A stretch of 42,381 nt of DNA from Candidatus Nanoarchaeia archaeon (GTDB lineage Archaea; Nanobdellota; Nanobdellia; Woesearchaeales; ARS49). Positions 1-36,198 of this stretch are shown here, piece by piece. The DNA lies in the NCBI GenBank assembly GCA_041484255.1, contig JBGPHE010000002.1, forward strand, positions 1 through 42,381, written 5' to 3'. How positions within the stretch are numbered: the first letter of the stretch is position 1; each line of letters begins with the position of its first letter. The notes beneath the pieces were generated by a model. It was not told the origin of the DNA. It saw only the letters and a program-made list of their open reading frames with translations, and did no database searches. Both the position numbers and the translations under genes were made by a program.

Positions 1-2994
1 ACGCCGAACGACAACATCACTGACGGCAACACCACCTGCAGCAACAACGTGACTATCACTGCGCAGCAGAATAACCCGCCCGTCATCGCGCAAGTCATCC
101 TCAACGCGACCAATGTCTCGAACAACACCAATCAGAACCTGACCGTCTTCATCATCAACGCGACGGACGCGGACAACAATGTCGTGCAGAACATCACCGA
201 TTGGCGGCTGAACAGGACCAGCATCGCGGTGCTGAACATGCCGTTCGAGACCAACACGAGCAGCCTGAACCTGGGCGCCATCCGCGACTACAGCACCTGG
301 AGCAACAACGGCACGTTGGGCAATGGTACCGCAGCTGATGCGCCGCGCTGGAACAACTCAGGCCAAGTAGGCGGAGCCTATATCTTTGACGGCATCGACG
401 ACTTCATCGAAGTCCCCCACCAGAGCAGCCTCACGTTCGACAGCGACTTCACCGCGACCGTCTGGCTGCGCCTGAACAAGTCGCAGGCGTCATTCGCGTT
501 CTCCAAGCGAGTCGGCGCTCCGACCTTCCAGCAATGGGACCTCGGAGTCGTCGACACGACCGACTGCACCAGCTCATTCGCCACTGCGGGAACCTCGTTC
601 TGCTTCCTCATCTGCAACGGCGGAGGAACGTGCAACGGCGCAGGAACCGCCAACGGCTACGCCGACAACCGGTTCCACTTCGTCACAGGGGTGCGCAGCG
701 GCACCACTTATAGCCTTTACGTGGACGGCGCGTTCGTTTCGTCGACCACCCGCGCGGGCGACATCAGCAACACGCGCGCATTTGTTATTGGTAATATCGG
801 CGATTTGTCCCCAACTGCAGGCTTTGCGTTCAATGGCACGATTGACGAAGCAATCATTTACAACCGCTCGCTCTCCGCCGCCCAGATCAATCAGCTGTAT
901 GTGGACGGCAACGCGAGCAGGCATTCAATGACGATTGTCCAGAACGAGCTGCTCGCAGGCCAGAACTGGAGCGTCTGCGCCACGCCGAACGATAACATCA
1001 GCGACGGCAACACGACGTGCAGCAACAACGTGACCATCACCTCTGTGCAGAACGTGAGCAACCGGCCGCCGACCATCGCGCAAGTCATCCTGAACACGAC
1101 CAATCCGCTGACGAACGACACGAACCAGAACCTGACGGTCTTCATCATCAACGCGACCGATGTGGACAATGACGTCGTGCAGAACATCACTGACTTCCGC
1201 CTGAACAACGGCACGGTGTTCAAGTCGGTGAACGTGCTGAACATGCCGTTCGAGACCAACCAGAGCGGTAACGTCACCAGCGGAGCCATCCGCGACTACG
1301 GCACGTACGGCAACAACGGCACGCTCGGCAATGGCGGCGCAGCCCAGGCACCAGTCTGGCTGCAGCGCGGCCAGGTCGGCGGGGCATACCAGTTCGACGG
1401 CTCGGACGACTTCATCGACGTCGCGAACAGCACATCCGTCGATTTCACCACGACCTCGCAGGTGAGCATCTCGCTGTGGATCAACCGCACCGGCGGCGGC
1501 ACCGTGCAGCACATCCTGGGCAAGCGCCTTGGCTGCACCGGCTCAGGCGTCCAGTACCAAATGGCCTTTGACACGTTTGACGGGCCGTTCGGCCTCTCCG
1601 CCTTCGCCGCGTCGACCGGCGAGAACCCGCCCGTCGGCCAATGGGTGCACATTGTCGCCACCTATGACGGCACGAACTCGCGTATCTATGTCAACGGCAC
1701 GCTCAATGCGAGCGCGACAGGCGTAGGCATCAACACACCTATCGCCACAGACCTGCGCATCGGTCAGGCGGGAACGTGCACACCGTTCACCGGCATCATC
1801 GACGAACTGCAGATCTGGAACCGCACGCTCTCGCAGCAGGAGGTATCGCAGCTCTATGCGGACGGTCAGACGCACATCCACCTCAGCGCCATCACCCCGC
1901 CGGAAACGGTCGCGGGCGAAGTCTGGCAGGCCTGCGCGACGCCGAACGACAACCAGACCGATGGCAACACGACGTGCAGCAACAACGTGACCATCAACGC
2001 GGTGCAGAACGCGAGCAATGTCGCGCCGGCAATCGCGCAGGTCATCCTGAACACGACGAATGTCGCGCTGAATGACACCAATCAGAACCTGACGACGTTC
2101 ATCATCAACGCGACGGACGCGGACAGCAACGCGGTGCAGAACATCACGGACTTCCGCAAGAACAACGTGAGCATCGCAGTCCTGAACCTGCCGTTCGAGA
2201 ACAACACGAACAACGTGAGCGCAGGCTACATCCATGACTACACGACGTTCCAGAACAACGCGACGCTGGGCAATGGCGTCGTCAGCCAGGCGCCGCGCTG
2301 GAACCAGTCCAGCAGGCTCGGCGGCATGTACGCGTTCGACGGCATCGACGACCTCACCACGGTCGCCGACGCGACCAGCCTGAAGCCGCTCAACAACATC
2401 TCTATCGAGATGTGGCTCAATCTGACCGGCCAGACCGGCGTGACTGTCGGCGGCGCGCCCGCAGGGCTGCAGTACATCTTGCACAAGCCGCGCGTCATCG
2501 GCAGCGGCTGCTTCGAAGGCTATACCATCCTCAAGACCGCCGCCGGAGCCCTTGCCATTGTCGCGACCGGCAGCGGCGGATGCGGAGAGCAGGGCTCCGC
2601 AGTCACCACGACCAACATCACAACCGGCGTCTGGTATCACGTGGTCAGCACGTTTGACGGCAAGACCTTGCGCATCTATCTGAATGGCACGCTCGAAGGA
2701 AGCGGCGCGCACGCGTTCGACCTCTCGTACACGAGCGCGCCGCTCGTCATCGGCCAGACCGCCGACTTCTTCGACGGCCGCTTCAACGGCACCATCAGCG
2801 AGGTGCGCATCTACAACCGCAACTTCTCGGACGCGCAGGTCGCGCAGCTCTACCAGGAAGGGCTCGTCAACAAGCGCCCGATGACGATTGTCCAGCCCGA
2901 GCTGCGCGCGGGCGAGGTCTGGCAGAACTGCGTCACGCCGAACGACAACCAGACCAACGGCAACATCACGTGCAGCAATAACGTCACCATCAGC
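1..2994 (+). repeat. Tandem ~960-1000-nt coding modules (Ig-like plus LamG), three complete copies plus the tail of a fourth at the window edge.
   Basis: The junction motif ACGCCGAACGA(C/T)AAC...GGCAACA(C/T)(C/G)ACGTGCAGCAA(C/T)AACGT occurs at 1, 982, 1939 and 2935, giving periods of 981, 957 and 996 nt. Each module restarts with (P)P.IAQVILN.TN...NQNLT.FIINATD.D. Confidence 0.8.
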
Positions 2995-5900
2995 GCGCAG
3001 CAGAACGTCACCACGTCCTGCCCCGTGACCATCAACGTGAGCACGACATTGACGCAGAACATCACGGTCACCGCCACTGCGCCGTGCGTCACCTTCGGCG
3101 CGAGCAACATCACTCTGGACTGCGCAGGATACACCATCTTCTATGACCCGGTGGGCGCGGGCACTGATGCCATCGTCGCGGAGAACCGCACGAACGTCAC
3201 CGTCAGGAACTGCGTAATCATTGACGCAAACACCGGCGGCTCCAGCGGCATCGGCATCAACTTCACGAGCGTCAATGACAGCGCAGTCATCAACACCAGC
3301 ATCCAGACCAACGGAACGGACAGCAACTACGGCATATTGATCACGAGCGACTCGAACAGGAACATCATCGCCAACAACACCATCCGCACGCAGGGCTCGG
3401 CCATTGACAACATCGGCATCCACCTCACCACACTGGTATCAGGCAACAACGTCACCGGCAACAACATCACGACGAACGGCACGAGCGGCAATATCGGCGT
3501 CCGCATGGTGACCTCGGCAAGCAACAATCTCGTGTCGTACAACAGTATCAGCACGCACGGCGATGCCTCGGGCAACTTCGGCGTTGCCGCGGTGAGCAGC
3601 TCTCCAGGCAACCGCATCATCAGCAACAGCATCACCACGAACGGCTCCTTCAACGCGGGAGGAATCTCGGTCTCGGGCACCGGCACAGGCAATGCCACCG
3701 TCGTGAACAACACCATCAGCACCGATGGAAGTTCTCTCGCGATCGGCATTAACTACGGCATCATCATGTCCGGAGGGTTCGGCAGCAACAACGTGTCTGG
3801 CAATAATATCAGCACCCATGGCGTGTCATCCGACTTCGGCATCGAGATCGACAGCGGAACCAACAGCAACGTGTTCGACTCCAACATCATCGCGACCGCG
3901 GGCAATGGCAGCCAGGCGCTGTTCATCTTCAGGTCGAACGACTCGGTCTTCACGAACACGGTCTTCGACAATCCGAGCGACTGGATGAATTCCAGCGCAA
4001 ATACCTTCAACAATCTGACGAACACCACGTTTAGGATGCCGAACGGCAGCATCCGCATGAACAGCCTTGTCCAGCTGAACGGCTCGCAGGACGTGACCAA
4101 GGCAAGATTGAACATCACGTTCAACCGCGCGTTCCTGAACAGCACGAACCTGTCGTTCCTGAACACGACTGCAGTCATCACGCTCAACGGCATCGGATTC
4201 TCCGCGCCCGTGCCGACCGTGGACTTCACGGACAGCGGCGTGTTCTCGACCTGTCCGGCAAGCGTGTGCGCCGTGGTGAGCTTCTCCGGCGGCGTGCTGG
4301 TGTACAATGTGACGCACTTCACCTCGTTCTCCTCGACCGAGGGCAATGTGAACATCACGCTCACAAAGACCGACTCGCCTGACCCGGTCAACGCGAGCGC
4401 CAACCTGAGCTACCAGATCACGGTCAATGTGACGTCTGACAGCCCTGCGAACATCACGCTGACCGACCAGTACCCTGCGCAGGTCATCTTCCTGACCGCG
4501 CAGCCGTCGCCCATCGGCGGAACGAACAACACATTCATCATCGGCAACCTGACGAACGGCACCAGCTTCGCGGTGAACATCACTGTGCTCGTGCTCAATG
4601 TCAGCAACGGCACGCTCATCAACAACACCGCGAACATCAGCTACCAGAACGCGACCAGCGCGCTCTTCGCGCTGAACGTGACCGAGAACACTACCGTCCT
4701 CAATCCGCCTGTGGTGAACAACACCAACATCACATCCTGCCCGGTCACCATCAACACGAGCACGACATTGACGCAGAATCTTGCGGCAAACCTGACCGCG
4801 GCCCAGTCGTGCATCACCTTCGGCGCGAACAACACCGCGCTGGACTGCAGCGGCTTCAGCCTCAACGGCAACCTGACCGGCAACGGCATCAACGCGACCA
4901 ACCGGCTGAACATCAGTATCAGGAACTGCGTCATCGAGAACTTCACCATGAACATCCTCCTGCAGGGGACGAACATGAGCACGGTCGCCAACAACACCGC
5001 GCGCAACTCGACTCAGCAGAGCATCGAGATCCAGTCGAGCTCGCACGACCGCGTCGAGAACAACACCGCCGCGAGCATCACGAACACCGGAATCAATGTG
5101 ACGACCGGCGTCAACAACACGCTGATGAACAACAACGGCACGTCGGTGTCCGGCGACGGCATTGACATCGACACGAACAGCGTCAACAACACGCTCATCA
5201 ACAACAACGGAACGAGCACATCACAGTACGGCATCCAGATTGCGTCCTCGTTCAACAACACGCTCATCGGCAACCGCGGAACCGCGACCGGCGGACAGGC
5301 TATCAGGCTCGCCCAGAGCAACGGGAACACGCTCGCAAACAGCACCTCGGCCGGCGCGTACGGCATCAGCATTATCACCAGCGACTACAACATCATCCTG
5401 GGCAACAACGCCACAGGCACGACGGCCGGGCTCTTCCTGGGCGATGCCAGCTCGGACTTCAACAACTTCACCGGCAACAGGATCGACGCGCCGTCAGCCG
5501 CGGCCGTGAGCATCGGGGCGAGCCAGAACAACACGTTCGTCAACAACTCGTTCGCGACGGACACCGCCACTGACGTGCAACTGTCGTCCGCGATCGGCAT
5601 CCGCGGCGCCGGAAACCTCTTCATCAACACCACGCTCCGCACCAACGCGACGTGGCTGTCCACCGACGCGAACAGCACCGGCAACAACTTCACGAACACC
5701 GTGTTCGTCAGCTTCAACGGCAGCATCCGCATCATTCCCACGGCGACGCTGCCGAACGCGACATCTCTCGACTTCCGCAAGCTGAACGTGTCGTTCAACC
5801 GCGCGTTCCTCAATGCAACTAATGCATCGTTCCTGAACCAGAGCGCGCAGATTGCGCTGCTCAACCCGACCAGCAGCCAGCCGACCGTGGACTTCACGGA

Positions 5901-8763: not shown

Positions 8764-8780
8764 AAACCCAAGATGGTCGC

Positions 8781-8791
8781 TTATATATAGA
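8781..8791 (+). promoter_or_regulatory. TATA-like box (CTTATATATAG) upstream of giant gene 2, followed by the SD-like AAGAGGT at 8806-8812.
   Basis: This is the only AT-rich block in the 59-nt spacer. It lies ~37 nt upstream of the GTG at 8823. Confidence 0.4.
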
Positions 8792-8822
8792 GTACTGTGG
8801 GTAAAAAGAGGTTGAGAAGGTA

Positions 8823-11800
8823 GTGACACGAAAAGGTGTGCTTGAAGAGAAAGCACTGATAGCTATCCTCCTACTTGCAGGTCTCCTCGGCGTCGGCGTG
8901 ATGCTCTGGGGCACCGGCATTCTTCATGCGCCGAGCGGCGATGCCACGGGCGCTGCCGTCGCGGGCGCGAATATGCCGCCCGTCTGGACGCCCGAGACGA
9001 CCAAGTATGTTATCGCCAAGAATCAGCAGTTCACGCTCGCGCTTCCGGCGGTCTTCAGCGACCCTGAAGGCGAGCCGCTCACGTTCATCGCCACGCAGAC
9101 CGAGAATCTCGACGTGCAGGTGAGCAACGACATCCTCACCATCACCCCCGAACCCGGCTTTGCGGGCGAGCGCGTCGTGACGGTCATCGCTTCCGACGGA
9201 ACGCAGGTGACGAGCAAGCGCCTCAATATCGAAGTCGGCGACGGCCAGACGACGCCTGAGCAAGTCGCGCCGCAGCCCGAAGCGCCCGTATCTTCCGGAG
9301 AAGCAGCCCCTGCAGAGCGCACGCTCGAAAAGGTCGAGGCCAGCGTCGAACAGGCCGTCTTGCAGCAGCCCGAAGTCCAAGTCATCGTTATTCTCAAGCA
9401 GCCTGCTGCCGCCTTCGCCGCAGCGGCGGACAACACCAAGCAGGAGACGCTCGACGACCAGAAGGCGCGCGTCGACGAGGCGCAGAGCGCGATCGAGCAG
9501 TCCATCAGCGCAGAGACGCCTGCAGCAACGGGCGCAATCACCGGCGCAGCGGTTGAAGACGGCAATAATGACATCGAAATCACGCGCTCGTACGACACCA
9601 TCAACGCAATCGCGGTCAATCTCACGCAGGCAGGACTGGAACAGCTCAGGAACGACCCGAATGTCGAGCAAATCCTGCTTGACCGCACGTTTAGCATCCA
9701 GCTCGCGCAGAGCGTTCCGCTCATCGATGCGGACGACGTCTGGAACCGCACGGCAGGCAGCGTCAATGTCACCGGCCAGGGCGAAAGCATCTGCGTCCTC
9801 GACACCGGCATCGACTTCAACCATTCCGCGTTCACGAACAAGATTGTCGGCGGCTACGACTATGTCAACAACGACAATTCGCCGCAGGACGACGCAAGCA
9901 ACAGCCACGGCACGCACGTCTCGGGCATCGCGGCAGGCAACAGCAGCTCAGTCAAGGGTGTCGCCCCTGACGCGCGCATCGTTCCAATCAAGGTCTGTAA
10001 TGGCGCAAACAGCTGCACCGGCTCGGCGATTCTCGCAGGCATCGACTACTGCAACAACAATTCAGTCGTCTACAACATCGACGCAATCTCGATGAGCCTT
10101 GGCGACAACGGCCAATACAACTCCACGACCTGCCCGACTGCATTCGAGTCCGCGTTCGCGACCTCGGCCAGCCTGGGCATCATCCCCGTTGCCGCATCGG
10201 GCAACAACGGCAACACTGGCGGAGTGAGCTACCCGTCCTGCTCGTCTTATGCCATCAGCGTCGGTTCGTCCAGCAAGGCAGACGCACTCGACAGCTTCTC
10301 GAACCGCGGCGGAGACCGCTTTGACGTGCTCGCGCCCGGCCACAGCATTGTTTCGTCGATTGTCGGCGGCAGCACCGGCTCGTTGACCGGCACGTCGATG
10401 GCCACGCCGCACGTCTCGGGCGCCATCGCGCTCATCCAGCAGTCGCAGAAGTCGCAGGGCAAGTCACCGCTGTCCGTCGAAGAGATGCGGCAGCTGTTCA
10501 AGGACACCGGCGTTGCCGTGAGCGGCCTGCCGCGCATCGACGTCCTTGCCGCACTCGTCCAGCTGGACCAGAACATCACGCTCAATATCTCGGACAATTC
10601 GGTCACGAACAGGACGCCGCCGAGCGCAAAGGTCAAGTTCGCGTCGGCAACCGATTTGAGCCAATTCGTCGACTGCGCGCAGGTGCAGTACAATTTTGTC
10701 TCCATCGATTCCGACCGCTGCCCGCAGTACAACAAGAGCGCGCACATCACGTTCTCCGGCCTGCCCGGCGTTGCCGCGACGCCGTTGCTCGACGGCGAGC
10801 CGTGCGATTCCTCCATCTGCACGAACACCGTATTCAGCGGAGGCGTGCTGGACTTCGACGTCACGGGCTTCAGCAATTACAGCAGCAACAGCACGTTCAC
10901 GACATCGACGCCGTGCGCCACCTGCGACCTGTGCACGGTCTGCGCGGCGGTCGCGGGAACGACCTGCACGCCGTTGACAGACATTGTCGCGACCACGGGC
11001 TCGAACTGCATCAACGTCACCGCAAACAATGTAGTGATCGACTGCGCGGGAGCCACCATCACAACGACAAGCTCCAACTCCGCAGGAGTCCTCATCAACG
11101 GCACCCGCAACAATGTGTCGGTCAGGAACTGCATCTTCAACATGTCCGCGCTCGGCATCTCCACAAGCACTTCGCAGCCGCTGGGGGCGGTGCAGAACGG
11201 CACCATCGCGAACAACGTGTTCAACATCGCCAATACCGGAACTGCGTACGCCATCAGCGTGTATTTCAACGGGACGAACATCACCGGAAACGTCATCACC
11301 AATAACGGCACCGGCGGTGGGTCGGTCATCGGAATATTTATCGAACCGCCCATTTACAACGACACCGCGAACAATGTCACAACCATCTCGGACGTGCACA
11401 TCGAGTACAACAACATCTCGATTGGCTCAGACCTCTTCCCGAGCGAGGGCATTACCCTTGCAGGGCAGGGCAGCGCGAACATCACCGGGTATGTGCGCAA
11501 CACTCGCGACATGGTCATCAACAATAACAAGATTGTCCTGCGGGGCCCGAACTCCGGGAACACCATCCAGCTCGGCATGCAGATCCAGGGCATCAACGGC
11601 ACGATGAACCTGACGAACAACACCATCGATATGAACGGTACGGGCAACTTCACGTTCGCGTTCGAATCGGCGGATTCGCAGTCCATGCGCGTCGACGGGC
11701 TGGTGCTCAACCTCACGCAGGACCAGACCGCGAACTGGTTCTACTCGTCGTTCTCCTCGTCATTGGGACAGTCGCTCGTCGTGTCGAACATCGTGTTCAA

Positions 11801-14800
11801 TGACATCAACGGCAGCATAGCCTATCCCGGGCCGATCACGCCGAACACGGCAGTGATCACGCGCCAAATCAACAGGACGGACGTCAACATCACCTTCAAC
11901 CACGCGTTCGCGAACACCACGATGTTCCCGTTCCTCAGCACGACCGCGAACGTCACCCTGCGCGGCCTGCCGTTCACGCTTCCCAAGATCCTGCGCTCGA
12001 CCAATGAGGTCAATTACGTCGACTGCGGCGCGACCTGCTCGCAGAAGCAGTACTTCAACGGCACATTGATGTTCCGCGTCAGCGCGTTCACCTCCTACAT
12101 CGCGAACGAGAGCGGCGTCGAGCTGTCCAAGAACGACTCGGTCGACCCGGTCAATGTCAGCAATACCATGACGTACACCATCCTCATCAACGCCTCGGCG
12201 AACGCGAGCAATGTCACGCTCACGGACACGCTGCCGCGCAAGGTCACGTTCATCAGCGCGCAGCCGAGCCCGCTGTCGGGAACGACCGACACGTTCATCG
12301 TCGGCAACCTGACAAACGGCACCGAGTTCCGCGTCAACATCACCGTGCGCATCGGCCTGTTCAGGAACGGCACCGTCATCAACAACACGGCGAACATCAC
12401 GTTCCAGAACCAGACCGGCGCGTTCCTCACCCTGAACGTTTCTGAAAACACCACGGTCCTCGGGCTTGTCGTCGCGTCCTGCCCGGTCAAGATCAACGGC
12501 AGCGTCGTGCTGGACCGCAACCTGCAGTCGAACGACACGTGCATCACCTTCGGCAACAGCAGCATCGACCTGGACTGCGACGGGTTCTCGCTCACGTACG
12601 GCATCAACGGCCTGCTGAACGACACGATGGCGGTCAATGTCACGAATTCGACGAACTCCAGCATCGTCAACTGCGTCATGATCAAGGGCAACGTGAGCGG
12701 ATTCCGCACCTACGGCGTCGGCGTCATCACGTCGCCCCGCCTGCGCATCGAGAACAACACCATCGCGACCAATGGCTCGGGCAGCGACGACGGCATCCAC
12801 ATCAGCGACGCCGGCGGAACCAACCCTGGCGGCACCATCAGGCTGGTCACGAACCCGAACAACATCTACGCGCCCAGCTGCGTCGCCAACGCGCCCGGCG
12901 TGAGCTACTGCAGCGTCCTCTATGTGAACGACTTCAACGACCGCGGAACAAAGTTCCCGCTCGGCTTTGGCCGCGGCGGCTGCCAGGTCAGGCACAAGGG
13001 CTACCACTTCAACACCGTGCTTCAGTTCAACCTCTCCGTGCTTCCCACGAGCGGCGCGATGGCAGGCATCGGCGGCGAGTTCGGCGGATGCGCGCTGAAC
13101 GGCGTCGAGATCTGGCACGTGTACGTCAACAACAACTGCCGCCAGTACAAGAGCGTGAAGTTCGGCAGCACGCCGTTCGTCATCGGCGAGAACAACCTCA
13201 CTTGCTACATGACCGGCATCGGCGCGGGCAACTGGCGCGGCTTCGGCTTGGACGCGTTCTCGTACGACCTTCCGCCGTCGAATGCCAGCGGCACCACCAA
13301 CGTCACCGTCAAGGGCAACAGCATCATCGCAAGCTCGGGCAACGACACCAACGGCGTCTTCCTGGACGCGGACAACTCCACCATTACCAATAACACCATC
13401 GTCGCGACGGGCAACAGCCTCGATGACGGCATTGAGACCATCGGCGGCAACGCGGTCATCACCGGCAACGTCATCCTGACGCGCGCGGTCAACCAGAGCC
13501 ACGCGCTCTTCCTCAGCGGCGGAAACAACACCCTCATCGCGAACAACACGCTGAGCGCGAACACGACCGGCAGCGCGGCGCTCTTCATGGGCGGCAGCGT
13601 GACCAACTCGACCGTGCAGAACAACACCCTCGCGTCCAACGGAACGGGAACGAGCGGCATCTACCTGTCCTCGTCCACCGGCCACCGGTTCATCAACAAC
13701 ACGTTCCTGAATACCACTGGCGCGGCAGTCTATGCTGAGCTTTCCCTGAGCAATGTCTTCAGCGCAAGCACCATCCCCGCTGCTCCCATCACCTCGCTGC
13801 TCATCCTGGAAAACGACGGCTCCATCAACTACACCCAGCAGCTCAGCCTGTTCACCCCCGTCAACCTGTCGCAGGTCGTGAACATCAGCTACAACAGCAC
13901 GTTCGTGAACACCTCCGACGCGGCAGGCAGCCAGCTGAACGCCTCGGCATTGCTGAGCTTCTTCGGCATCCTCGACCTTGACGCAGACCCGGTGATCGAC
14001 GCAGGTGATAACGGCTCGTTCGCGCTCTGCCAGGGGCCGCGCTGCGCCAACAGGAACTTCGACCCCGGCAATTCAGTCATGACCTACAATGTCCAGTCGT
14101 TCACCACGTACTCGACCAAGCCCGTGCAGGCGTGCGGCGTCCTGGACTATGCCGCCGAGAACGACACCTCGCTGAACATCGTCCTCACCAGGAACGTGAC
14201 GTCCAACGACACCTGCTTCCAGGTCTTCGCGTCCAACTTCACGCTGGACTGCCAGGGCAACACCATCCTCTACGGCGCCCAGGGAACGGGCGCGGGCATC
14301 GCCGTCGGAAACGCCAGCAATATCACCATCGAGAACTGCATCATCCGCGACATCAACGCCTCGGGCTCGGCCGGCTACGGCATCTACTTCAGCAACAGCA
14401 GCTACGGATTCGTCATCAACAACACCATCACGACGAACGGCACGTCCAGCAACCACGGCGTGCAGGTCGAGACGCTGGCGGGCTCCTCGGTCAACAATTT
14501 CACCATCGTGAACAACACCATCATGACGTTCGGCACGTCCGCCGCCAACAACGGCGTGAACATCGAGATCCAGTCGACGAACCTCAGCTCCAGCAGCAAC
14601 CACACCGTCATCGGCAACAACATCTCGACAAACGGCACGAGCGACAATGTCGGAATCAATATCTTCGCCAGCAACGGCAACATGAGCAACAATACCGTCT
14701 TCAACAACACCATCCGCACGCACGGCTCGACCGGAAACAACAACCACGGCGTCTATCTGCGCGAGGCCACCGGCGCGCTCATCGACAGCACGGTCGCGTA

Positions 14801-17800
14801 CAACAACATCATCACCAACGGCTCGAGCCAGAATAACGGCGTCTTCGCAGACCCCGGCACTATTGGCTCCGGCGTGCTCAAAAACACGCTGGTCGCAAAC
14901 AACACCATCGTCGCGGGCGGAAGCGGCTTCTTTAACGTCGGCGTCGAGTTCATCGCGAACACCAGCACCATCGACAACAACCTCATCAATACCACGGGAG
15001 TGGCCGGCTTCGACTACGGCATCTACGTGAACGGCCTCCAATTGGGAAACATCCCTGCGTTCAACCTGGTCATCACGCGCAACAACATCTCGACCACGGA
15101 CCGCTCCGGAGGCGGCGCCAACAGCCAGAACTTCGGCATTCTGGTGAACAACAACATCCGCAACAGCTATGTCATCGGCAACACCATCACGACCAACGGC
15201 TCCGGCGGCGTCAATATCGGCATCTCGCTGGACGACGACGTCTACAACACCACCGTCGAGAACAACACCGTGGTCACCGGCGGCAAGTATGGCTCCAACT
15301 ACGGCATCGCGCTGCTGTCCGACAGCGCGTTCGACGGCGCGGTCATCGACAACAACGTCACGAACAACACCGTCAACACCACCGGCGACTCCCTGAACAT
15401 CGGCCTCTTCCTGTTCGCGCCGCTGCCGAACGCGAACGTCGTGCAGAACAACCGGCTCCGCATCAACACCGTGCACGCGCGCGGCAACAGCACCAAGGAG
15501 TTCGGCGCGATGCTGTCCGGCAGGGTCTTCTACAACAACCTCACGAACAACCAGCTCATCTCGAACGGCACCGACAACAACGATGGCGTCTTCATCAACA
15601 CGAGCGGCGGCTTTGCCGCGACGGACGACATCATTGAGAACAACAACATCAGCACCTGGGGTAACGGCAGCAGCAACGTCGGCGTCCATCTGACGGATGG
15701 CGTGTCCCAGCACAATATCACCAACAACACCATCGTGACGCACGGCATCGACACCAACCACGGCGTCTTTGTCCAGCTGTCCTCGCCCCGCAACCTCATC
15801 GCGCGCAACAACATCACGATGGCAACGTTCGGCGCGAACAACAGCGGCGTCGATATCTCCGGCAGCACCACGAACATCGTGCGCGACAACCTCATCCGCA
15901 CCAACAACACGCCGTTCGACAACGGCATCCTGCTCACGACCTCGGCGAACAATAACAACGTGAGCAACAACACCATCGTTACGAACGGCACCGTTATCAA
16001 GGTCGTCTCGAGCCAGAGCAACCTCATCAAGGACCAGAACGCGACCACGGTCGCAGGAGGCGGCGTGGTGCTCACGACCGCGACGCTGAACAACTTCACG
16101 GACGACATCATCGCGAGCGACACCGGCATCGGGCTGGAGTTCTCGAACGGCACGTCGAGCGGCACCTTCTTCAGCGGATTCGAGGGCGGAACGCTCTCGC
16201 CGTTAACCACCAGCGGCAACAATGTCTGGGCGATCAACAACACCGACGTCTTCCAGGGCAGCTTCAGCGCGCAGTCGGGCGACATCAACGACTCGCAGAG
16301 CGCGGTGCTCACGCTGGCGCTCTCCGCGGGAGCGGGAACGGTCAGCTTCGCGCGCAAGGTCGAGTCTGAGTCGGGCTTTGACTTCCTGACGTTCAGGATT
16401 GACGGAGTGACGCAGCAGACCTGGTCAGGCCTCCTGCCGTACGCCGTGTTCAACTTTTCGTTCACGAGCGCGAGCACGTTCACCTGGACGTATTCCAAGG
16501 ACAGCTCGGTCACCGTGCAGAACGACACCGCGTTCGTCGACAATATCAACATCTCGTTCGCGGGCGGCGGAGCGCAGAACAACACGTTCACGCGCACGCT
16601 CTTCTACGCCAACCAGACCTGGTTCGTGGTGGGCGCGGGCGACACGAACAACACCGTGCAGAACGTCACCTTTGTCGGCCAGAACGGCAGCATCAACTTC
16701 CCGCCACTCATCCACTTGGGCGAGAGCTCGAACGCGACCATCCAGCGCATGAACAACACGCTCAACCTGTCGTACGTCAACAGCTCGGCGCTGGCCCTGC
16801 CGTTCTTCAACAACACAGCCATCCTGCGCTTCAGCCAGACGCGCTTCATCGACCCGGTGCCGTTCCGCGACCCCGAGGACGATTTGTCGTTCGCGTACTG
16901 CAGGAACTCGACGCCCGGCCACTGCACCAAGCTCGCCTACGTGAACAACGAGTTCGTCATCAATGTCAGCGGCTTCACGTTCTATGCGCTCTCCGAGGGC
17001 CAGGTGAACCTCACCCTGAACAAGACCGACTCTCCTGACCCGGTGCCGGCGAGCAGCCAGCTCAATTACACGATTATCGTGAACAACAGCGGCACGAGCA
17101 CGGCGCTCAACCTGACGCTGCTGGAAATCTACCCGAACGAGGTCATCTTCCTTTCGGCGCAGCCGTCGCCCGAGCCGGGAACGAACAACACGTTCTTCCT
17201 GGGCAACTTCTCGCCCGACAGCCAGATCCAGCTCAACATCACCGTGTTCGTGCGCAACATCACCGCAGACTCGGTCATCAACAACACCGTCAATGCCACG
17301 TTCCTGAACCAGAGCAACGCGACCATCCACGCGAACGTGACCGAAAGCACCACCGTCCTGAACCCCGCGGTGCTGAACATGAGCACCGTCTCCATCGTGA
17401 AGACCGACTCGCCTGACCCGGTCAACGCGAGCAGGAACCTCACGTATGTCATCAACGTGACAAGCACCGGCCCGGGCATCGCGCGCAATGTCTCGGTCAA
17501 TGACACCTATCCGAGCGACGTCATCTTCCTCACCGCGCAGCCGACGCCGATTGCCGGAACGAACAACACGTTCTTCCTCGGAAACATCACGAACGGCACG
17601 AGCGTCCTCATCAACATCACCGTGCTTGTGCGGAATACCAGCGACGGCCTGGTTCTTAACAACAGCGCGAACGTGACGTTCCACAACAACTCGAACTTCA
17701 CGTTCACGGCGGTGGCGACGGCGAACACGACCGTGAACAACCCGCCCGTCATCAACGGAAGCACCATCACCGTGACCAAGTCGAACTCGCCCGACCCGGT

Positions 17801-18722
17801 CTCGGAAGGCGGTACGCTGAGCTACACCATCACCGTCACGAGCAGCGGCACGGCGACCGCGTTCAACGTGACCGTCAATGACACGTACCCGAGCGGCGTC
17901 GTCTTCGACAGTTCGCAGCCAACGCCGATACCCGGAACAAACAACAGCTTCTTGCTCGGCAACCTGACGGCAGGAACGGTTGTCGTAGTCAACATCACCG
18001 TCAATGTAACCGCGCCGGGCGGCAGCACGCTCACCAACAACGTGAACGCCACAGGGCAGAACACCAGCAGCGGCCTCATCAGCGCGACGGCAAGTTCGAG
18101 CGCGACCGTGAGCACGCCCGCAGTGCCCAGCGTAGGCGGCGGAGGCGGCTGGACCACGCCGACCACCGGCGGAGTGAACCGCAGCGCGCTCCCGCCACCG
18201 GCAGCGACCTCAGCCAATGGCGGCGCCTGCATCGAGAGCTGGAACTGCAATGACTGGGGACCGTGCGTCGGCGGAACCGCCTTCAGGACCTGCACGGACT
18301 CGAGCGTCTGCAACACGTTCACCTTGAAGCCCGCGGACCAGAAGACGTGCGAGATGCCCCCCGTACCTGTGCCCGAAGCGCCCAAGATCGAGAAGCCCGA
18401 AGTCCACGTTCCTGAAGTCACCGTGCCCGCGCTGACGCCTGCAAAGGCATTGCCGTGGAAGTGGGTGAGCGCGATTGTCTTGCTGATGATTGCAATCATT
18501 ATCCTTATCGTATCGCTGAGAAGGGGCGGAAAGGAAGGCGCAACGCCTGTTGAGAAGCCCGTTGCAGCGCCGCGCCCTGCGCCCAAGCTGACTCCCTACA
18601 GGCCGCCTGCGCTGCCGAAGCGCGAGGCACTCAAGCTGGACACCAAGGGCATCGCGAACACCCTGAAGGACACGGATAAGATGCTGAAAGAGCTTGAAAA
18701 GGCCCTGAAGAAGCAGCGATAA
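8823..18722 (+). CDS. Giant (3,299 aa) membrane-anchored subtilisin-adhesin. Architecture: N-terminal signal/anchor, Ig/cadherin-like domain, I9-like propeptide, S8 peptidase, three parallel beta-helix modules, four DUF11 repeats, 6-Cys module, TM helix and a short cytoplasmic tail.
   Basis: The gene starts at a GTG. The N-terminal hydrophobic segment is ALIAILLLAGLLGVGVMLW. The S8 triad motifs are ICVLDTGID, HGTHVSGIAAG and GTSMATPHVSGAIAL. Beta-helix turns read NNTI.T.G....GI. DUF11 repeats begin near 12118, 17007, 17388 and 17764. The C-terminal TM helix is WKWVSAIVLLMIAIIILIVSL. Confidence 0.9.
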   Translation: MTRKGVLEEKALIAILLLAGLLGVGVMLWGTGILHAPSGDATGAAVAGANMPPVWTPETTKYVIAKNQQFTLALPAVFSDPEGEPLTFIATQTENLDVQVSNDILTITPEPGFAGERVVTVIASDGTQVTSKRLNIEVGDGQTTPEQVAPQPEAPVSSGEAAPAERTLEKVEASVEQAVLQQPEVQVIVILKQPAAAFAAAADNTKQETLDDQKARVDEAQSAIEQSISAETPAATGAITGAAVEDGNNDIEITRSYDTINAIAVNLTQAGLEQLRNDPNVEQILLDRTFSIQLAQSVPLIDADDVWNRTAGSVNVTGQGESICVLDTGIDFNHSAFTNKIVGGYDYVNNDNSPQDDASNSHGTHVSGIAAGNSSSVKGVAPDARIVPIKVCNGANSCTGSAILAGIDYCNNNSVVYNIDAISMSLGDNGQYNSTTCPTAFESAFATSASLGIIPVAASGNNGNTGGVSYPSCSSYAISVGSSSKADALDSFSNRGGDRFDVLAPGHSIVSSIVGGSTGSLTGTSMATPHVSGAIALIQQSQKSQGKSPLSVEEMRQLFKDTGVAVSGLPRIDVLAALVQLDQNITLNISDNSVTNRTPPSAKVKFASATDLSQFVDCAQVQYNFVSIDSDRCPQYNKSAHITFSGLPGVAATPLLDGEPCDSSICTNTVFSGGVLDFDVTGFSNYSSNSTFTTSTPCATCDLCTVCAAVAGTTCTPLTDIVATTGSNCINVTANNVVIDCAGATITTTSSNSAGVLINGTRNNVSVRNCIFNMSALGISTSTSQPLGAVQNGTIANNVFNIANTGTAYAISVYFNGTNITGNVITNNGTGGGSVIGIFIEPPIYNDTANNVTTISDVHIEYNNISIGSDLFPSEGITLAGQGSANITGYVRNTRDMVINNNKIVLRGPNSGNTIQLGMQIQGINGTMNLTNNTIDMNGTGNFTFAFESADSQSMRVDGLVLNLTQDQTANWFYSSFSSSLGQSLVVSNIVFNDINGSIAYPGPITPNTAVITRQINRTDVNITFNHAFANTTMFPFLSTTANVTLRGLPFTLPKILRSTNEVNYVDCGATCSQKQYFNGTLMFRVSAFTSYIANESGVELSKNDSVDPVNVSNTMTYTILINASANASNVTLTDTLPRKVTFISAQPSPLSGTTDTFIVGNLTNGTEFRVNITVRIGLFRNGTVINNTANITFQNQTGAFLTLNVSENTTVLGLVVASCPVKINGSVVLDRNLQSNDTCITFGNSSIDLDCDGFSLTYGINGLLNDTMAVNVTNSTNSSIVNCVMIKGNVSGFRTYGVGVITSPRLRIENNTIATNGSGSDDGIHISDAGGTNPGGTIRLVTNPNNIYAPSCVANAPGVSYCSVLYVNDFNDRGTKFPLGFGRGGCQVRHKGYHFNTVLQFNLSVLPTSGAMAGIGGEFGGCALNGVEIWHVYVNNNCRQYKSVKFGSTPFVIGENNLTCYMTGIGAGNWRGFGLDAFSYDLPPSNASGTTNVTVKGNSIIASSGNDTNGVFLDADNSTITNNTIVATGNSLDDGIETIGGNAVITGNVILTRAVNQSHALFLSGGNNTLIANNTLSANTTGSAALFMGGSVTNSTVQNNTLASNGTGTSGIYLSSSTGHRFINNTFLNTTGAAVYAELSLSNVFSASTIPAAPITSLLILENDGSINYTQQLSLFTPVNLSQVVNISYNSTFVNTSDAAGSQLNASALLSFFGILDLDADPVIDAGDNGSFALCQGPRCANRNFDPGNSVMTYNVQSFTTYSTKPVQACGVLDYAAENDTSLNIVLTRNVTSNDTCFQVFASNFTLDCQGNTILYGAQGTGAGIAVGNASNITIENCIIRDINASGSAGYGIYFSNSSYGFVINNTITTNGTSSNHGVQVETLAGSSVNNFTIVNNTIMTFGTSAANNGVNIEIQSTNLSSSSNHTVIGNNISTNGTSDNVGINIFASNGNMSNNTVFNNTIRTHGSTGNNNHGVYLREATGALIDSTVAYNNIITNGSSQNNGVFADPGTIGSGVLKNTLVANNTIVAGGSGFFNVGVEFIANTSTIDNNLINTTGVAGFDYGIYVNGLQLGNIPAFNLVITRNNISTTDRSGGGANSQNFGILVNNNIRNSYVIGNTITTNGSGGVNIGISLDDDVYNTTVENNTVVTGGKYGSNYGIALLSDSAFDGAVIDNNVTNNTVNTTGDSLNIGLFLFAPLPNANVVQNNRLRINTVHARGNSTKEFGAMLSGRVFYNNLTNNQLISNGTDNNDGVFINTSGGFAATDDIIENNNISTWGNGSSNVGVHLTDGVSQHNITNNTIVTHGIDTNHGVFVQLSSPRNLIARNNITMATFGANNSGVDISGSTTNIVRDNLIRTNNTPFDNGILLTTSANNNNVSNNTIVTNGTVIKVVSSQSNLIKDQNATTVAGGGVVLTTATLNNFTDDIIASDTGIGLEFSNGTSSGTFFSGFEGGTLSPLTTSGNNVWAINNTDVFQGSFSAQSGDINDSQSAVLTLALSAGAGTVSFARKVESESGFDFLTFRIDGVTQQTWSGLLPYAVFNFSFTSASTFTWTYSKDSSVTVQNDTAFVDNINISFAGGGAQNNTFTRTLFYANQTWFVVGAGDTNNTVQNVTFVGQNGSINFPPLIHLGESSNATIQRMNNTLNLSYVNSSALALPFFNNTAILRFSQTRFIDPVPFRDPEDDLSFAYCRNSTPGHCTKLAYVNNEFVINVSGFTFYALSEGQVNLTLNKTDSPDPVPASSQLNYTIIVNNSGTSTALNLTLLEIYPNEVIFLSAQPSPEPGTNNTFFLGNFSPDSQIQLNITVFVRNITADSVINNTVNATFLNQSNATIHANVTESTTVLNPAVLNMSTVSIVKTDSPDPVNASRNLTYVINVTSTGPGIARNVSVNDTYPSDVIFLTAQPTPIAGTNNTFFLGNITNGTSVLINITVLVRNTSDGLVLNNSANVTFHNNSNFTFTAVATANTTVNNPPVINGSTITVTKSNSPDPVSEGGTLSYTITVTSSGTATAFNVTVNDTYPSGVVFDSSQPTPIPGTNNSFLLGNLTAGTVVVVNITVNVTAPGGSTLTNNVNATGQNTSSGLISATASSSATVSTPAVPSVGGGGGWTTPTTGGVNRSALPPPAATSANGGACIESWNCNDWGPCVGGTAFRTCTDSSVCNTFTLKPADQKTCEMPPVPVPEAPKIEKPEVHVPEVTVPALTPAKALPWKWVSAIVLLMIAIIILIVSLRRGGKEGATPVEKPVAAPRPAPKLTPYRPPALPKREALKLDTKGIANTLKDTDKMLKELEKALKKQR
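9700..10560 (+). other. Subtilisin-like (S8) peptidase domain within giant protein 2.
   Basis: The catalytic Asp codon is 9801-9803 (VLDTG). The His codon is 9906-9908 (HGTHV). The Ser codon is 10395-10397 (GTSMATP). An oxyanion Asn lies in AASGNNG. An I9-like segment (RSYDTINAIAVNLTQAGLEQLRNDPNVEQILLD) lies upstream. Confidence 0.85.
16990..18110 (+). repeat. Three consecutive DUF11-type repeats (~380 nt each) in giant protein 2.
   Basis: The repeats read NLTLNKTDSPDPVPASSQLNYT..YPNEVIFLSAQPSP, VSIVKTDSPDPVNASRNLTYV..YPSDVIFLTAQPTP and ITVTKSNSPDPVSEGGTLSYT..YPSGVVFDSSQPTP. Confidence 0.8.
18455..18517 (+). other. C-terminal transmembrane helix of giant protein 2.
   Basis: WKWVSAIVLLMIAIIILIVSL is followed by RRGGKEG and a 60-aa Lys/Pro-rich tail. 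Confidence 0.75.
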
Positions 18723-19034
18723 TCAGCCGAAGCGCTTTCTGATGTATTCCTGCTGCAAAAGCAGCGTGTAGATGAAGACTGCGATCACGACCAGCTCGAA
18801 CAGCGCGTTGATGTGGATCGGGATGTCGATGATTCCGATGGCACGCAGAATCGTCAGGAGTTCTTCAACGATGTACACGATGACCGCAAAGAAAAGCAAT
18901 TTCCACGGGAACAGGAAGACTCGCGCCTTGGGCTGGGTCTTGAACAGCGCGATAAAGAGCGCGACGACAACCGCGACCATCGCCAGGTTGTAGTACGGCG
19001 CGATCATGCCGAGCGCGACGCCGAAGTCGACCAT
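18723..19034 (-). CDS. Small (103 aa) three-TM membrane protein, paralog of the upstream gene.
   Basis: Three hydrophobic segments are visible. It shares the pattern FK..(5-7)..W..L.....VEE....L...GI with the adjacent gene. The start ATG overlaps the upstream stop (TAATG). Confidence 0.55.
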   Translation of the reverse strand: MVDFGVALGMIAPYYNLAMVAVVVALFIALFKTQPKARVFLFPWKLLFFAVIVYIVEELLTILRAIGIIDIPIHINALFELVVIAVFIYTLLLQQEYIRKRFG

Positions 19035-19336
19035 TAGTCAGCACCCCGCGTGACTTGAATCTGCACGATGAGTGCGGCGATGAGGAATGCGAGGATGATG
19101 CTGGGGATGACATGCGTGAGCCAGGGCGTGCTCCAGATGCCGAAGGTCTTCAGTGCGCCGACAAACTCCTCGACGCAGAAGAACACCAATGCCCAGAGCA
19201 GGTAGCGCCAGGCGCGGAGGCTCTTGCGCTCGCGGGCCTGCTTGAACATGCTGAACGCGATGCCGCCGGCGACGAACGAGAGGATGACTCCCGCGATCTG
19301 GCCGCTGCCGTAAATCCAGTCATACGTGGTCAGCAT
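19034..19336 (-). CDS. Small (100 aa) three-TM membrane protein, paralog of 18723-19034.
   Basis: I place the start at the internal ATG 19336 (MLTTYDWIYGSG...). The longer ORF-track N-terminus is Ser/Pro/Arg-rich and overlaps the divergent promoter region. A TATA-like GTTTAAATAG on the minus strand (19358-19368) lies ~27 nt upstream. Confidence 0.55.
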   Translation of the reverse strand: MLTTYDWIYGSGQIAGVILSFVAGGIAFSMFKQARERKSLRAWRYLLWALVFFCVEEFVGALKTFGIWSTPWLTHVIPSIILAFLIAALIVQIQVTRGAD

Positions 19337-21411: not shown

Positions 21412-21996
21412 ATGCGCGTGTTCTGTATGAACCAGCGCACGCGCGAACTCTGGAGAAAAGCCGCACATATCGTTATCGGCACGTTCTGCCTCGGGGCTGC
21501 AGTATTTATCGAACAGCATCACGGCTGGGCTGCGCTTGAGCTCACGCTTGCGTGCGTTCTTGCCGTTCTCGTACTCGCAGACGTCCTTATCGCAGATTAT
21601 GGCTGGAAGCTGCCGTTGTATCACCACTTGCAGCGGCCGCACGAGACTGAAGGATTGCACACTGCAACGCTTTCCGTGCTCAGCGCCATTGTCGTAATCA
21701 AGCTGTTTTCCATTCCCGTGGCGATTGCCGCCATCGCGATGCTGATTTATGGCGACTCGGCAGCGGCGATTGCAGGAGCATACGCGCGTTCGCGCAAAAA
21801 GGTTGCCGCGCCGCGCATTGCCGCGATGTTTATCGTGAGTGCATTGATCGGCGTCTACGCGCTGGGCTGGCAAGTCGGCGTCGGCATGGCGATTGTCGCG
21901 ACGGTTGCCGAGTGCTGGACCAAGAAAATCGACGACGCAGTCACGATTCCGATTCTCGCAGGGCTGGCGGGCCAGCTTTTGCTGCATTTCTTATAG
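21412..21996 (+). CDS. Polyprenol (dolichol/phytol) kinase-like integral membrane protein, CTP-dependent cytidylyltransferase-fold family.
   Basis: It reads WRKAAHIVIGTF...LIYGDSAAAIAGAYARSRK...VAECWTKKIDDAV with 5-6 TM helices. The TATA TTTTATAC at ~21393-21400 suggests the second ATG at 21427 may be the true leaderless start. The family assignment rests on motif pattern only. Confidence 0.55.
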   Translation: MRVFCMNQRTRELWRKAAHIVIGTFCLGAAVFIEQHHGWAALELTLACVLAVLVLADVLIADYGWKLPLYHHLQRPHETEGLHTATLSVLSAIVVIKLFSIPVAIAAIAMLIYGDSAAAIAGAYARSRKKVAAPRIAAMFIVSALIGVYALGWQVGVGMAIVATVAECWTKKIDDAVTIPILAGLAGQLLLHFL

Positions 21997-22679: not shown

Positions 22680-22681
22680 AA

Positions 22682-22755
22682 CGGGTCTGGCCAGATTTGA
22701 ACTGGCGACCTGTCGGTTAACAGCCGACCGCTCCACCGGGCTAAGCTACAGACCC
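22682..22755 (-). tRNA. tRNA-Asn (anticodon GTT), no encoded CCA.
   Basis: The minus-strand sequence GGGTCTGTAGCTTAGCCCGGTGGAGCGGTCGGCTGTTAACCGACAGGTCGCCAGTTCAAATCTGGCCAGACCC(G) folds as a cloverleaf. The acceptor is GGGTCTG/CAGACCC, the anticodon stem is GTCGG/CCGAC, the anticodon loop is CTGTTAA, and the T arm is GCCAG-TTCAAAT-CTGGC. Confidence 0.9.
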
Positions 22756-22812
22756 ACGTACCGAGAATAAGTCAAAGGTGCAGTTAAAAAGCTTTTGTTG
22801 CGCGCGGAGAAT

Positions 22813-23947: not shown

Positions 23948-24021
23948 TGGCCCAGCTCGGAGTTGAACCGAGGACCGCTCGATTATCAGTCGAGTGCTCC
24001 ACCTGGCTGAGCTACTGGGCC
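23948..24021 (-). tRNA. tRNA-Ile (anticodon GAT), no encoded CCA.
   Basis: The minus-strand sequence is GGCCCAGTAGCTCAGCCAGGTGGAGCACTCGACTGATAATCGAGCGGTCCTCGGTTCAACTCCGAGCTGGGCC(A). All four stems pair canonically and the anticodon loop is CTGATAA. Confidence 0.9.
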
Positions 24022-27174: not shown

Positions 27175-27197
27175 ATCGACGATAATACCGTTTTGCC

Positions 27198-27207
27198 CTT
27201 TATAAAG
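27198..27207 (-). promoter_or_regulatory. TATA box (CTTTATAAAG) for the GGDEF operon.
   Basis: This palindromic TATA is centred ~29 nt upstream of the ATG at 27174. Confidence 0.45.
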
Positions 27208-27244
27208 CTTCTGGTTATTAACTACTAGAAGGTGACGAATAAAA

Positions 27245-27318: not shown

Positions 27319-27345
27319 AATAGTGTGAAAATGACTGCAGGTGCT

Positions 27346-36142: not shown

Positions 36143-36166
36143 TCCTGTGCGCGTATCGAAGAAATA

Positions 36167-36176: not shown

Positions 36177-36198
36177 TCTTATGTACTTCAGATACAGA

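Follow-up and report, generated by a model that had tools for sequence, protein, structure and literature searches.

Giant modular adhesins and proteases of DPANN archaea, and N-glycosylation by the oligosaccharyltransferase AglB, are already established biology. The closest described analogue of the proteins considered here is the SPEARE group of Nanohaloarchaeota, which combines a serine protease with at least one laminin-G and other adhesion domains and, close to its C-terminus, has a transmembrane (TM) helix and then a cytoplasmic part, and in which a region resembling type III restriction enzymes is the most conserved portion (PMC6642349). Fibrillar adhesins offer a second point of reference: their stalk domain, DUF11, has been renamed CLIPPER, a solved CLIPPER domain contains an isopeptide triad of Lys715, Asp748 (+33) and Asn806 (+91), and archaeal CLIPPER proteins rarely have neighbouring domains (bioRxiv 10.1101/2025.04.25.650565). 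As for glycosylation density, the highest value reported in Sulfolobales is one glycosite per 30-40 residues (PMC12153357). Here we describe a 42,381-bp metagenome contig of ~60% G+C, analysed over its whole length (the window), in which two adjacent genes, g1 and g2, encode giant membrane proteins that extend this known biology through an extreme load of N-glycosylation sequons, through dense stalks and sparse heads, and through conserved accessory genes and modules. We consider it probable that the two form paired, glycan-sheathed, fibrillar-adhesin-like tethers, one bearing lectin-like heads and the other a protease, that make contact with a host or another surface.

An open reading frame (ORF) scan places both genes on the + strand (49..8763 and 8823..18722), 59 nt apart and together covering 44% of the window, in agreement with a previous sequence-only reading of this DNA, which had noted two same-strand giants of more than 2,900 aa and 3,299 aa. 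The plan ascribed to both in that reading, i.e., an ectodomain, a linker, a six-cysteine (6-Cys) module, a single TM helix and a Lys/Pro-rich tail, is found in g1 as well as in g2 (Table 1), with a Gly-rich linker ahead of the 6-Cys module and a Pro-rich spacer between this module and the TM helix. Pfam hidden Markov models (HMMs) reproduced all of its domain assignments (Laminin_G_3, Beta_helix/NosD, DUF11 and Peptidase_S8) and identified Big_9 as an additional domain. Laminin_G_3 matches three stretches of g1 (9e-59, best at aa 466-616), which lie in repeat units of ~320 aa that are 62-69% identical to each other when compared as 150-aa chunks, and DUF11 (PF01345) matches four stretches in each giant (2e-24 and 3e-27). 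The subtilase in the head of g2 (PF00082, 3.2e-45; propeptide PF05922, 4.3e-05) retains an intact catalytic triad, D327/H362/S525, in DTG, HGTH and GTSMA contexts, and a Cys-rich region lies between it and the internal DUF11 repeat. Two hydrophobic 19-mers are present in g2 (aa 11-29 and aa 3214-3232). Residues 941-2596 of g1 align with residues 1696-3293 of g2, the C-terminal half, at 33% identity, and by this alignment g1 and g2 are paralogues bearing different heads.

The combination by which a fibrillar adhesin is recognized, viz., tandem PF01345 repeats, separate heads (Laminin_G_3 in one protein; Peptidase_S8/Big_9 in the other) and a C-terminal TM anchor, is present in the pair. Like CLIPPER fibrillar adhesins, the giants have an N-terminal head, a repeated Ig-like stalk near the anchor and a large size, and the spacing of their putative triad may be comparable. 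Unlike these adhesins, which attach through a sortase or in the outer membrane, they are anchored by a C-terminal TM helix followed by a cytoplasmic tail; shafts of beta-helix, of considerable length, separate head from stalk, and the stalks carry 10-13 sequons per 100 aa; g1 and g2 also depart from the archaeal norm for CLIPPER proteins in carrying LamG, S8, Big_9 and Beta_helix domains.

Sequons, counted as N-x-S/T with x other than Pro in whole proteins and by domain class, number ~380 in the two giants jointly (191 in g1 and 189 in g2), with 12 in the first 107 translated residues, where the sequence-only reading had counted 11 in about 105. Full shuffles of the ectodomains give an expectation of 73.0 +/- 7.1 for g1 and 79.4 +/- 7.4 for g2 (z = 16.6 and 14.8), the highest counts in 2,000 shuffles being 97 and 104, respectively, and shuffling inside 30-aa blocks has the same outcome (z = 16.8 and 14.7). 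The observed sequons are 2.4-2.6x the composition-based expectation. Ectodomain densities of 7.8 (g1) and 6.0 (g2) sequons per 100 aa correspond to one sequon per 12.8 and 16.6 residues, and to one per 8-10 residues in the stalks. Outside the giants, 26 proteins of the window (6,910 aa in total; 3.0% Asn, 5.6% Lys) contain 0.32 sequons per 100 aa, and the density that had earlier been called extraordinary is 19-25x this local proteome background, in addition to exceeding the shuffled expectation. The ectodomain of g1 has 16 Lys in 2,440 aa (0.66%), as expected from the remark that the ectodomains are nearly free of Lys.

The sequons are unevenly distributed along both proteins. They vanish after the TM helix, as had been noticed previously, with none on its far side in either g1 or g2. 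Among the extracytoplasmic modules, the density per 100 aa is 10-13 in DUF11 repeats, 9-10 in the unassigned X module of g1 and ~7 in the beta-helices, and falls to 2.8-3.8 in LamG, 1.6 in the subtilase, 0.6 in the I9 propeptide and 0 in Big_9. If the sites are occupied, g1 and g2 would rank with the prokaryotic proteins predicted to be most densely N-glycosylated, and the combination of sheathed stalks and bare heads resembles viral glycan shields.

The CLIPPER repeats also show a residue spacing that would suit an isopeptide site. In all eight DUF11 repeats of the two giants a Lys stands at position 0 (TKTDSPDPV), an Asp or Glu follows at +32 to +34 (five of the repeats were pattern-matched and three read by eye), and Asn residues cluster at +84 to +89. 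Four of the 16 Lys residues in the g1 ectodomain are these position-0 residues. A PDB sequence search using a DUF11 stalk did not retrieve the solved CLIPPER domain.

Relatives of the locus, referred to by our locus numbers (L001 and so on), retain the same plan. A search with the AglB encoded downstream of g2 found only eight homologues among 5.8 billion proteins, and scans of GTDB species representatives, with the single sequence and with an alignment, found no relatives. Contigs were examined for six of the eight homologues, and in five of these six a sequon-dense giant or its 3' end is followed by p103 and p100, two small membrane proteins, and then by AglB; the loci with a giant are L001/L002, L003, L004 and L006, and L007 begins at a contig edge. 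A second, unbiased scan, anchored on p103, gave 15 loci, in which the gene for another membrane protein, p190, is usually adjacent to p100/p103. Giants with 5-7 sequons per 100 aa lie after p103 in five of them (L009, L011, L013, L014 and L016), all five with the 6-Cys module (in L011 in the upstream giant only), and tandem giants recur in L011 and L016. Two short C-terminal fragments also include the 6-Cys module, one in L020 with 3.6 sequons per 100 aa and one in L012 with 0.5, the latter consisting almost wholly of tail. The distant low-GC loci L018 and L022, which have enough downstream flank, contain p100/p103 and no giant; the flank of L019 is too short for this comparison. In all, the plan and gene order are kept in L001-L004, L006, L009, L011-L014, L016, L020 and L024, and as judged from this synteny the conserved core is giant-p103-p100-p190, kept in most loci, with the presence of AglB inside it being a subclade feature.

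L024 belongs to a metagenome-assembled genome (GCA_038884975.1) whose p190 is named by NCBI as from "Candidatus Woesearchaeota archaeon". From its giant onward, by way of FtsZ and MgtC as far as a methylase gene, it shares the gene order of the window, with no AglB at the site; its FtsZ and DNA ligase are 91% and 74% identical, respectively, to those of the window. Judged by such sequence relationships, the source of the window is a Woesearchaeota-like DPANN archaeon. G+C content varies widely among the syntenic relatives: the window has 60% and L024 45.5%, and loci further removed lie at 37-40%.

Based on topology and on what is known of these families, we propose that g1 and g2 would be exported by the Sec route, g2 by means of its N-terminal hydrophobic signal/anchor, and that the AglB of the locus would transfer a lipid-linked glycan to N-x-S/T sites during their emergence. 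The glycans would be packed on the beta-helix shafts, X modules and CLIPPER stalks (7-13 sequons per 100 aa), and the distal heads, i.e., at least three LamG modules in g1 and the I9-subtilase and cadherin-like Ig domain in g2, would remain comparatively bare (0-3.8 per 100 aa). The outcome would be two long, protease-resistant, glycan-sheathed tethers, with a putative Lys/Asp-or-Glu/Asn isopeptide triad kept in their CLIPPER repeats. One would display heads that bind carbohydrates or other ligands and the other would display a protease, and their likely purpose is to contact a host cell or particle and to process its surface. Each tether would be fixed to the membrane by a disulfide-rich 41-aa module, the Pro-rich spacer and one TM helix, and its cytoplasmic tail, which is basic and rich in Pro and repeats an amphipathic motif, would be open to an intracellular partner. 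The earlier suggestion of an adhesion and processing apparatus or a glycan-cloaked scaffold fits the predicted CLIPPER stalks, the intact triad and the sequon-poor heads. Host attachment by DPANN archaea is poorly understood, and the locus is a concrete, conserved and testable candidate for a contact apparatus in Woesearchaeota, a group of which, to our knowledge, no member has been cultured and on whose giant or glycosylated proteins we found nothing specific in the literature.

Several points weigh against the tether reading. Four of its elements are inferences of ours, viz., that the sites carry glycans, that isopeptide bonds form, that the giants adhere or touch a host, and what the tail does; the isopeptide bonds in particular are presumed from residue spacing alone. 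Sequons coincide with the Asn cluster at the presumed isopeptide site, and hence not every one of them can be usable. The N-terminus of g1 lies beyond the contig edge, leaving this protein incomplete, and one orthologue, in L004, has at least 4,147 aa, by which g1 would be missing more than 1,200 aa. Heads vary among orthologues, the g2-like giant of L016 giving no alignment to the subtilase region of g2, and therefore no single function is fixed. Finally, the family as a whole does not keep AglB beside the giants: the gene is seen within 10 kb in two of the six p103-anchored loci with enough flank (L009 and L016). The co-localization of enzyme and substrate genes that had been pointed out earlier thus holds for the window and its subclade and not as a family-wide linkage, and the enzyme-beside-substrate arrangement may be incidental.

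An alternative that we regard as unlikely, albeit deserving of consideration, is that the giants are a structural envelope or glycocalyx scaffold, such as a wall, an S-layer substitute or a spacer, with glycans for rigidity or protection and heads as accessories. Devoting so large a share of a 42-kb contig to two genes, and conserving their plan beside housekeeping genes, would suit such a role. S-layer glycoproteins of Sulfolobales are likewise Sec-exported, modified by AglB at N-x-S/T and endowed with a high site density that is read as stabilizing or protective, and their dense glycosylation has been linked to wall stability (PMC12153357). Unlike them, g1 and g2 have no S-layer family domain and a predicted-site density that is 2-3 times higher, when sequons are compared with reported glycosites. 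Related archaea also encode small proteins of 500-560 aa (P0010-P0016) with a signal peptide, 2-3 sequon-saturated DUF11 repeats, a Gly linker, the 6-Cys module, a TM helix and up to 9 sequons per 100 aa, which look like abundant coat proteins, and in another protein the 6-Cys module co-occurs with the archaeal S-layer domain PF07752. The reuse of this cassette in the small proteins speaks for the tether reading as well. A homology search with the C-terminus of g2 matched only relatives of 368-558 aa, the giants of the related loci, some of them cut at contig ends, not being among the matches. Halomucin of Haloquadratum walsbyi, a secreted extracellular protein of ~9,000 aa thought to form a protective glycosylated coat, is a further giant archaeal extracellular protein, which at the level of its description differs from g1 and g2 in domain content and in having no C-terminal TM anchor. 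However, no Pfam S-layer family matches g1 or g2, and the set of LamG heads, catalytically intact subtilase and CLIPPER stalks is typical of fibrillar adhesins and not of lattice formers. The swapping of heads between orthologues is likewise expected of interaction proteins under diversifying pressure.

It is very unlikely that the giants are a SPEARE-type trans-envelope device that attaches to a host, breaches it and channels material, with the tail as an effector or docking platform. The resemblance is considerable, as giant size, a mostly extracytoplasmic disposition, a serine protease, LamG, a C-terminal TM helix and a cytoplasmic C-terminus are common to both, the tails of the giants contain a conserved repeated motif, and SPEARE-like sequences have been reported in Woesearchaeota (PMC6642349). 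Yet, g1 and g2 are not members of the SPEARE family, because the defining cytoplasmic region resembling type III restriction enzymes is absent from their tails by Pfam; these are of low complexity, basic and Pro-rich, with a short helix motif. Further, the protease and LamG heads are divided here between two tandem paralogues, no toxin-like or pore-forming domain was detected in either of them, and SPEARE proteins have not been described as having CLIPPER stalks, a 6-Cys module or so extreme a density of sequons.

We judge it highly improbable that the sequon richness is a mere by-product of Asn/Thr/Ser-rich beta-solenoid and Ig repeats, with most sites unglycosylated. Both giants do consist of 11-12% Asn and 11-12% Thr, and NNT and NGT sequons are embedded in the beta-helix rung repeat and the DUF11 consensus. 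Nevertheless, the excess withstands both global and local shuffling, and it is specific to the +2 position: the mirror motif [ST]-x-N (70 in g1 and 85 in g2) and the offsets N-[ST] (61 and 84) and N-x-x-[ST] (64 and 56) are 2-3 times rarer than sequons, D-x-[ST] occurs 22 and 20 times, and the control motifs as a whole, Q-x-[ST] included, are two- to ten-fold rarer. N-P-[ST] is almost absent (two in g1, none in g2), and Thr is preferred over Ser, with Asn-x-Thr to Asn-x-Ser ratios of 139:52 in g1 and 125:64 in g2. The sequons also end exactly at the membrane and spare the heads of the same proteins. Moreover, sequon positions are better kept than residues overall: 54 of 55 are retained in comparison with an 87.5%-identical orthologue, and ~50% at 37-39% identity, where the totals are maintained. 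An assembly artefact, chimera or repeat collapse, judged indirectly from the sequence and its relatives, is barely credible even for two repetitive genes on a metagenome-derived contig, one of which runs off its end, since the longest internal DNA repeats are at most ~80-86% identical over a few hundred bases and hence give no sign of collapse, the reading frames are uninterrupted for 2,920 and 3,299 codons, and orthologous giants with the same module order are present in independent assemblies, on at least 10 contigs from different samples.

The 6-Cys module is a fixed 41-aa unit, C-x-E-x-W-x-C-x2-W-x2-C-x6-R-x-C-x-D-x3-C-x6-P-x5-C, and represents an uncurated repeat family that emerged as a by-product of this analysis. 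Its profile matches 6,453 protein clusters at E <= 1e-3 and 1,681 at E <= 1e-10, often in tandem, with up to 16 copies per protein (proteins P0056-P0205), and its neighbours elsewhere include CARDB, PG_binding_1 and Kre9_KNH besides PF07752. No Pfam model, including TSP_1 (PF00090), matches the module, nor does any PDB sequence even when a 30-sequence profile is used. Foldseek searches with its AlphaFold2 (AF2) model (pLDDT 78.9) return hits all at E > 1 with TM-scores of 0.37-0.47, six of the top eight being thrombospondin type-1 repeat (TSR) or TSR-like proteins. TSRs are units of ~40-50 aa with six Cys and a W-x-x-W-x-x-C...R-x-R-x-C pattern. The module is similar in size, in its six Cys and in a layered, Trp/Arg-containing pattern (W-x-C-x-x-W-x-x-C...Q-x-R-x-C), but with no significant Foldseek, Pfam or PDB-sequence match this is a resemblance only.

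The cytoplasmic tails of g1 and g2 consist of 18-19% Lys+Arg and 15-16% Pro, and post-TM tails across the giants of 15-24% and 10-17%, respectively. No Pfam family matches the tail of g1 (aa 2537-2920) or g2 above threshold, and a single sub-threshold match was obtained in that of g1. The g1 tail contains four copies of F-x-x-x-[LM]-[DR]-x-[LM]-D-x-x-[LF]-x-x-L-[DE], the last of them at the C-terminus. In a wider set (7609-8760 and 18519-18719 in the window; L004, L006, L011 and L016), the tails have 1-5 copies of F-[YKR]-x-x-[LMV]-D-x-[LMI]-D-x-x-[LI]-x-x-L-D-x-G-[KR]-L-P. In nearly every tail inspected, the last element is an amphipathic D-x-x-L-x-x-L-x-x-x-L-K-K helix with basic residues behind it, which loosely recalls MIT-interacting motifs.

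The paralogous membrane proteins p103 and p100, encoded convergently with g2, are a second by-product, a pair of ultra-conserved small membrane proteins. They are paired in every locus that covers both (L001-L004, L006, L007 and L009-L024) and share an invariant EE...L[RK]..G...P motif, and p103 is 66-96% identical in AglB-anchored relatives, where AglB itself is only 39-86% identical. Neither matches a known family; assignments of p103 to VKOR (E = 8e-4) or exosortase (E = 0.16) were rejected, as p103 is free of Cys and scores far under the cutoffs of these families. The product of p190 has a confident all-helical AF2 model of eight helices (pLDDT 87.6). The sequence-only reading had called it polyprenol-kinase-like, and JGI labels nine p190 orthologues 'dolichol kinase', but neither label has HMM or fold support: at E <= 1 neither Pfam nor NCBIfam gives a relevant match (the unrelated Sdh_cyt at 0.027 and Ilp adhesin at 0.18 are far below cutoff), a 25-sequence profile matches no PDB sequence, and Foldseek has no match to the PDB at E < 0.001. 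We thus rejected the polyprenol kinase assignment and retain it as an unverified label; the points in its favour are the JGI label and a resemblance of motifs in p190 (GD..A..G and DD..IP) to those of dolichol/polyprenol kinases.

A more far-reaching reading, which we hold to be improbable and offer as speculation, is that the giant(s)-p103-p100-p190 block, together with AglB in the subclade, is a dedicated system for a hyper-glycosylated host-contact organelle in Woesearchaeota-like DPANN archaea. Under it, p103 and p100 could be assembly or anchoring partners of the giants, the tail motif FYxKLDxLDxxLxxLDxGKLP, together with the D-x-x-L-x-x-L-x-x-x-L-K-K helix at the C-terminus, could be a docking signal that connects the external tether to a cytoplasmic machine, and the 6-Cys module, whose uncurated family runs to more than 6,000 protein clusters, could be a prokaryotic counterpart of the TSR.

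Table 1. Features of the 42,381-bp window, with residue numbers (aa) referring to the encoded protein
Feature	Position	Strand	Description
g1	1..8763	+	frame open to base 1, 5'-truncated by contig end; 2,920 aa translated; type-I membrane protein, 191 sequons
g1 repeat units, three, ~320 aa each	1..2934	+	unassigned X module (9-10 sequons per 100 aa), then Laminin_G_3 (2.8-3.8 per 100 aa)
g1 fourth X module, partial	2935-3150	+	
g1 shaft	3160..5556	+	right-handed beta-helix aa 1054-1211; DUF11/CLIPPER aa ~1448-1565; beta-helix/NosD aa 1619-1852
g1 stalk	6010..7200	+	three DUF11/CLIPPER repeats (Lys 2012, 2141, 2273), 12 sequons per 100 aa
g1 6-Cys juxtamembrane module, 41 aa	7273..7395	+	CxExWxCxxWxxC...R.C.D...C; Gly-rich linker before it
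g1 TM helix	7552..7608	+	aa 2518-2536; sole hydrophobic 19-mer in g1
g1 cytoplasmic tail, 384 aa	7609..8760	+	Lys/Arg/Pro-rich, sequon-free
g2	8823..18722	+	complete, 3,299 aa; giant type-I membrane protein, 189 sequons
g2 signal/anchor helix and Big_9 domain	8853..9215	+	helix aa 11-29; Big_9/cadherin-like Ig domain aa 50-131; no sequons
g2 head	9453..10511	+	Inhibitor_I9 propeptide aa 211-291; Peptidase_S8 subtilase aa 318-563; 1.6 sequons per 100 aa
g2 internal DUF11/CLIPPER	12120..12410	+	aa 1100-1196
g2 shaft	13287..16097	+	~940 aa of beta-helix/NosD/pectate-lyase-like rungs; NNT, NGT in rung repeat, ~7 sequons per 100 aa
g2 stalk	17001..18137	+	three DUF11/CLIPPER repeats (Lys 2734, 2860, 2986), 10 sequons per 100 aa
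g2 6-Cys juxtamembrane module	18228..18350	+	aa 3136-3176
g2 TM helix and cytoplasmic tail	18462..18719	+	TM helix aa 3214-3232; 67-aa basic tail ending ...DKMLKELEKALKKQR
p103	18723..19034	-	membrane protein of 103 aa, convergent with g2; by inspection, three hydrophobic segments
p100	19034..19336	-	100-aa paralogue of p103 (27% identity, E = 1e-8); three hydrophobic segments by inspection
AglB oligosaccharyltransferase	19416-21386	+	656 aa; PF02516 9.2e-12, 45.6 bits against a cutoff of 24.5
p190	21412-21996	+	194-aa polytopic membrane protein; linked to p100/p103
tRNA-Asn (GTT)	22681-22756		
PlsX (FA_synthesis)	22813-23886	-	bacterial-type lipid gene
tRNA-Ile (GAT)	23948-24021		
Hel308-like protein	24080-25609	+	exactly 509 aa conserved
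GGDEF-domain protein	26059-27285	-	PF00990 1e-29; signature GGDEL
tRNA-Arg (GCG)	27244-27319		
tRNA-Gln (TTG)	33696-33768		
RmlA	34386-35204	-	
RmlB	35171-36169	-	
PAP2 phosphatase	36515-37027	+	
tRNA-Gln (CTG)	37064-37136		
RmlD	37245-38090	+	
Alg14-like	39479-39955	+	
Alg13/PssE-like	39952-40392	+	

The gene for AglB starts 0.7 kb past g2 and its product matches the STT3 family, which agrees with its earlier placement close downstream of the giants; against TIGR04154 (archaeo_STT3) the protein scores 8.7e-14, far below the equivalog cutoff. It contains the DxD-type acidic motif YDFDSYY and the WWDxG motif WWDTGH, and the residues D74, D76, W440, W441, G444 and H445 are invariant across nine homologues. 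A scan for D..K/M..I gave one chance-level match (MFGI, residue 339), which is upstream of WWDTGH, and the alignment inspected by eye has no clear DK or MI spacing after WWDTGH. AglB itself has six sequons, five visible ones after WWDTGH, and the other 25 non-giant proteins of the window share 16. In AglBs of solved structure, the C-terminal part is extracytoplasmic.

The genes around AglB differ between relatives. The slot between the giant and AglB is occupied by a GT2 gene in L001/L002, a sulfotransferase gene in L006 and a GFO/epimerase gene in L004, and a GT4 gene follows AglB in L003 and L006. These differing glycan enzymes suggest that the N-glycan varies at strain level. The window contains a further set of glycan genes (34386-40392) 13 kb from AglB, whose Rml genes, PAP2 phosphatase and Alg14/Alg13-like pair would fit a lipid-linked glycan that contains rhamnose. 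In being split, the Alg13/14-like pair is similar to the EpsE/EpsF type that has been reported for DPANN archaea (PMC8993221).

Among the remaining genes, the bacterial-type lipid gene plsX is kept in the synteny block (L006, L007 and L024), and L008, a contig from a related metagenome-assembled genome, has FabH-like and PlsC-like acyltransferase genes (1-193 and 2935-3933). Five tRNA genes are located amid housekeeping genes. The GGDEF-domain protein is conserved in L001 (17341-18423); diguanylate cyclase domains are unusual in archaea. The Hel308-like protein, with relatives in L001 (14775-16921), L006 and L024, has Helicase_C, HTH_61, archaeal domain 4 and HhH matches, and no N-terminal DEAD/RecA1 domain was detected in it by Pfam. 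As a LAGLIDADG ORF is present immediately upstream of the Hel308-like gene in L001, this gene appears to be split or interrupted by an intein.

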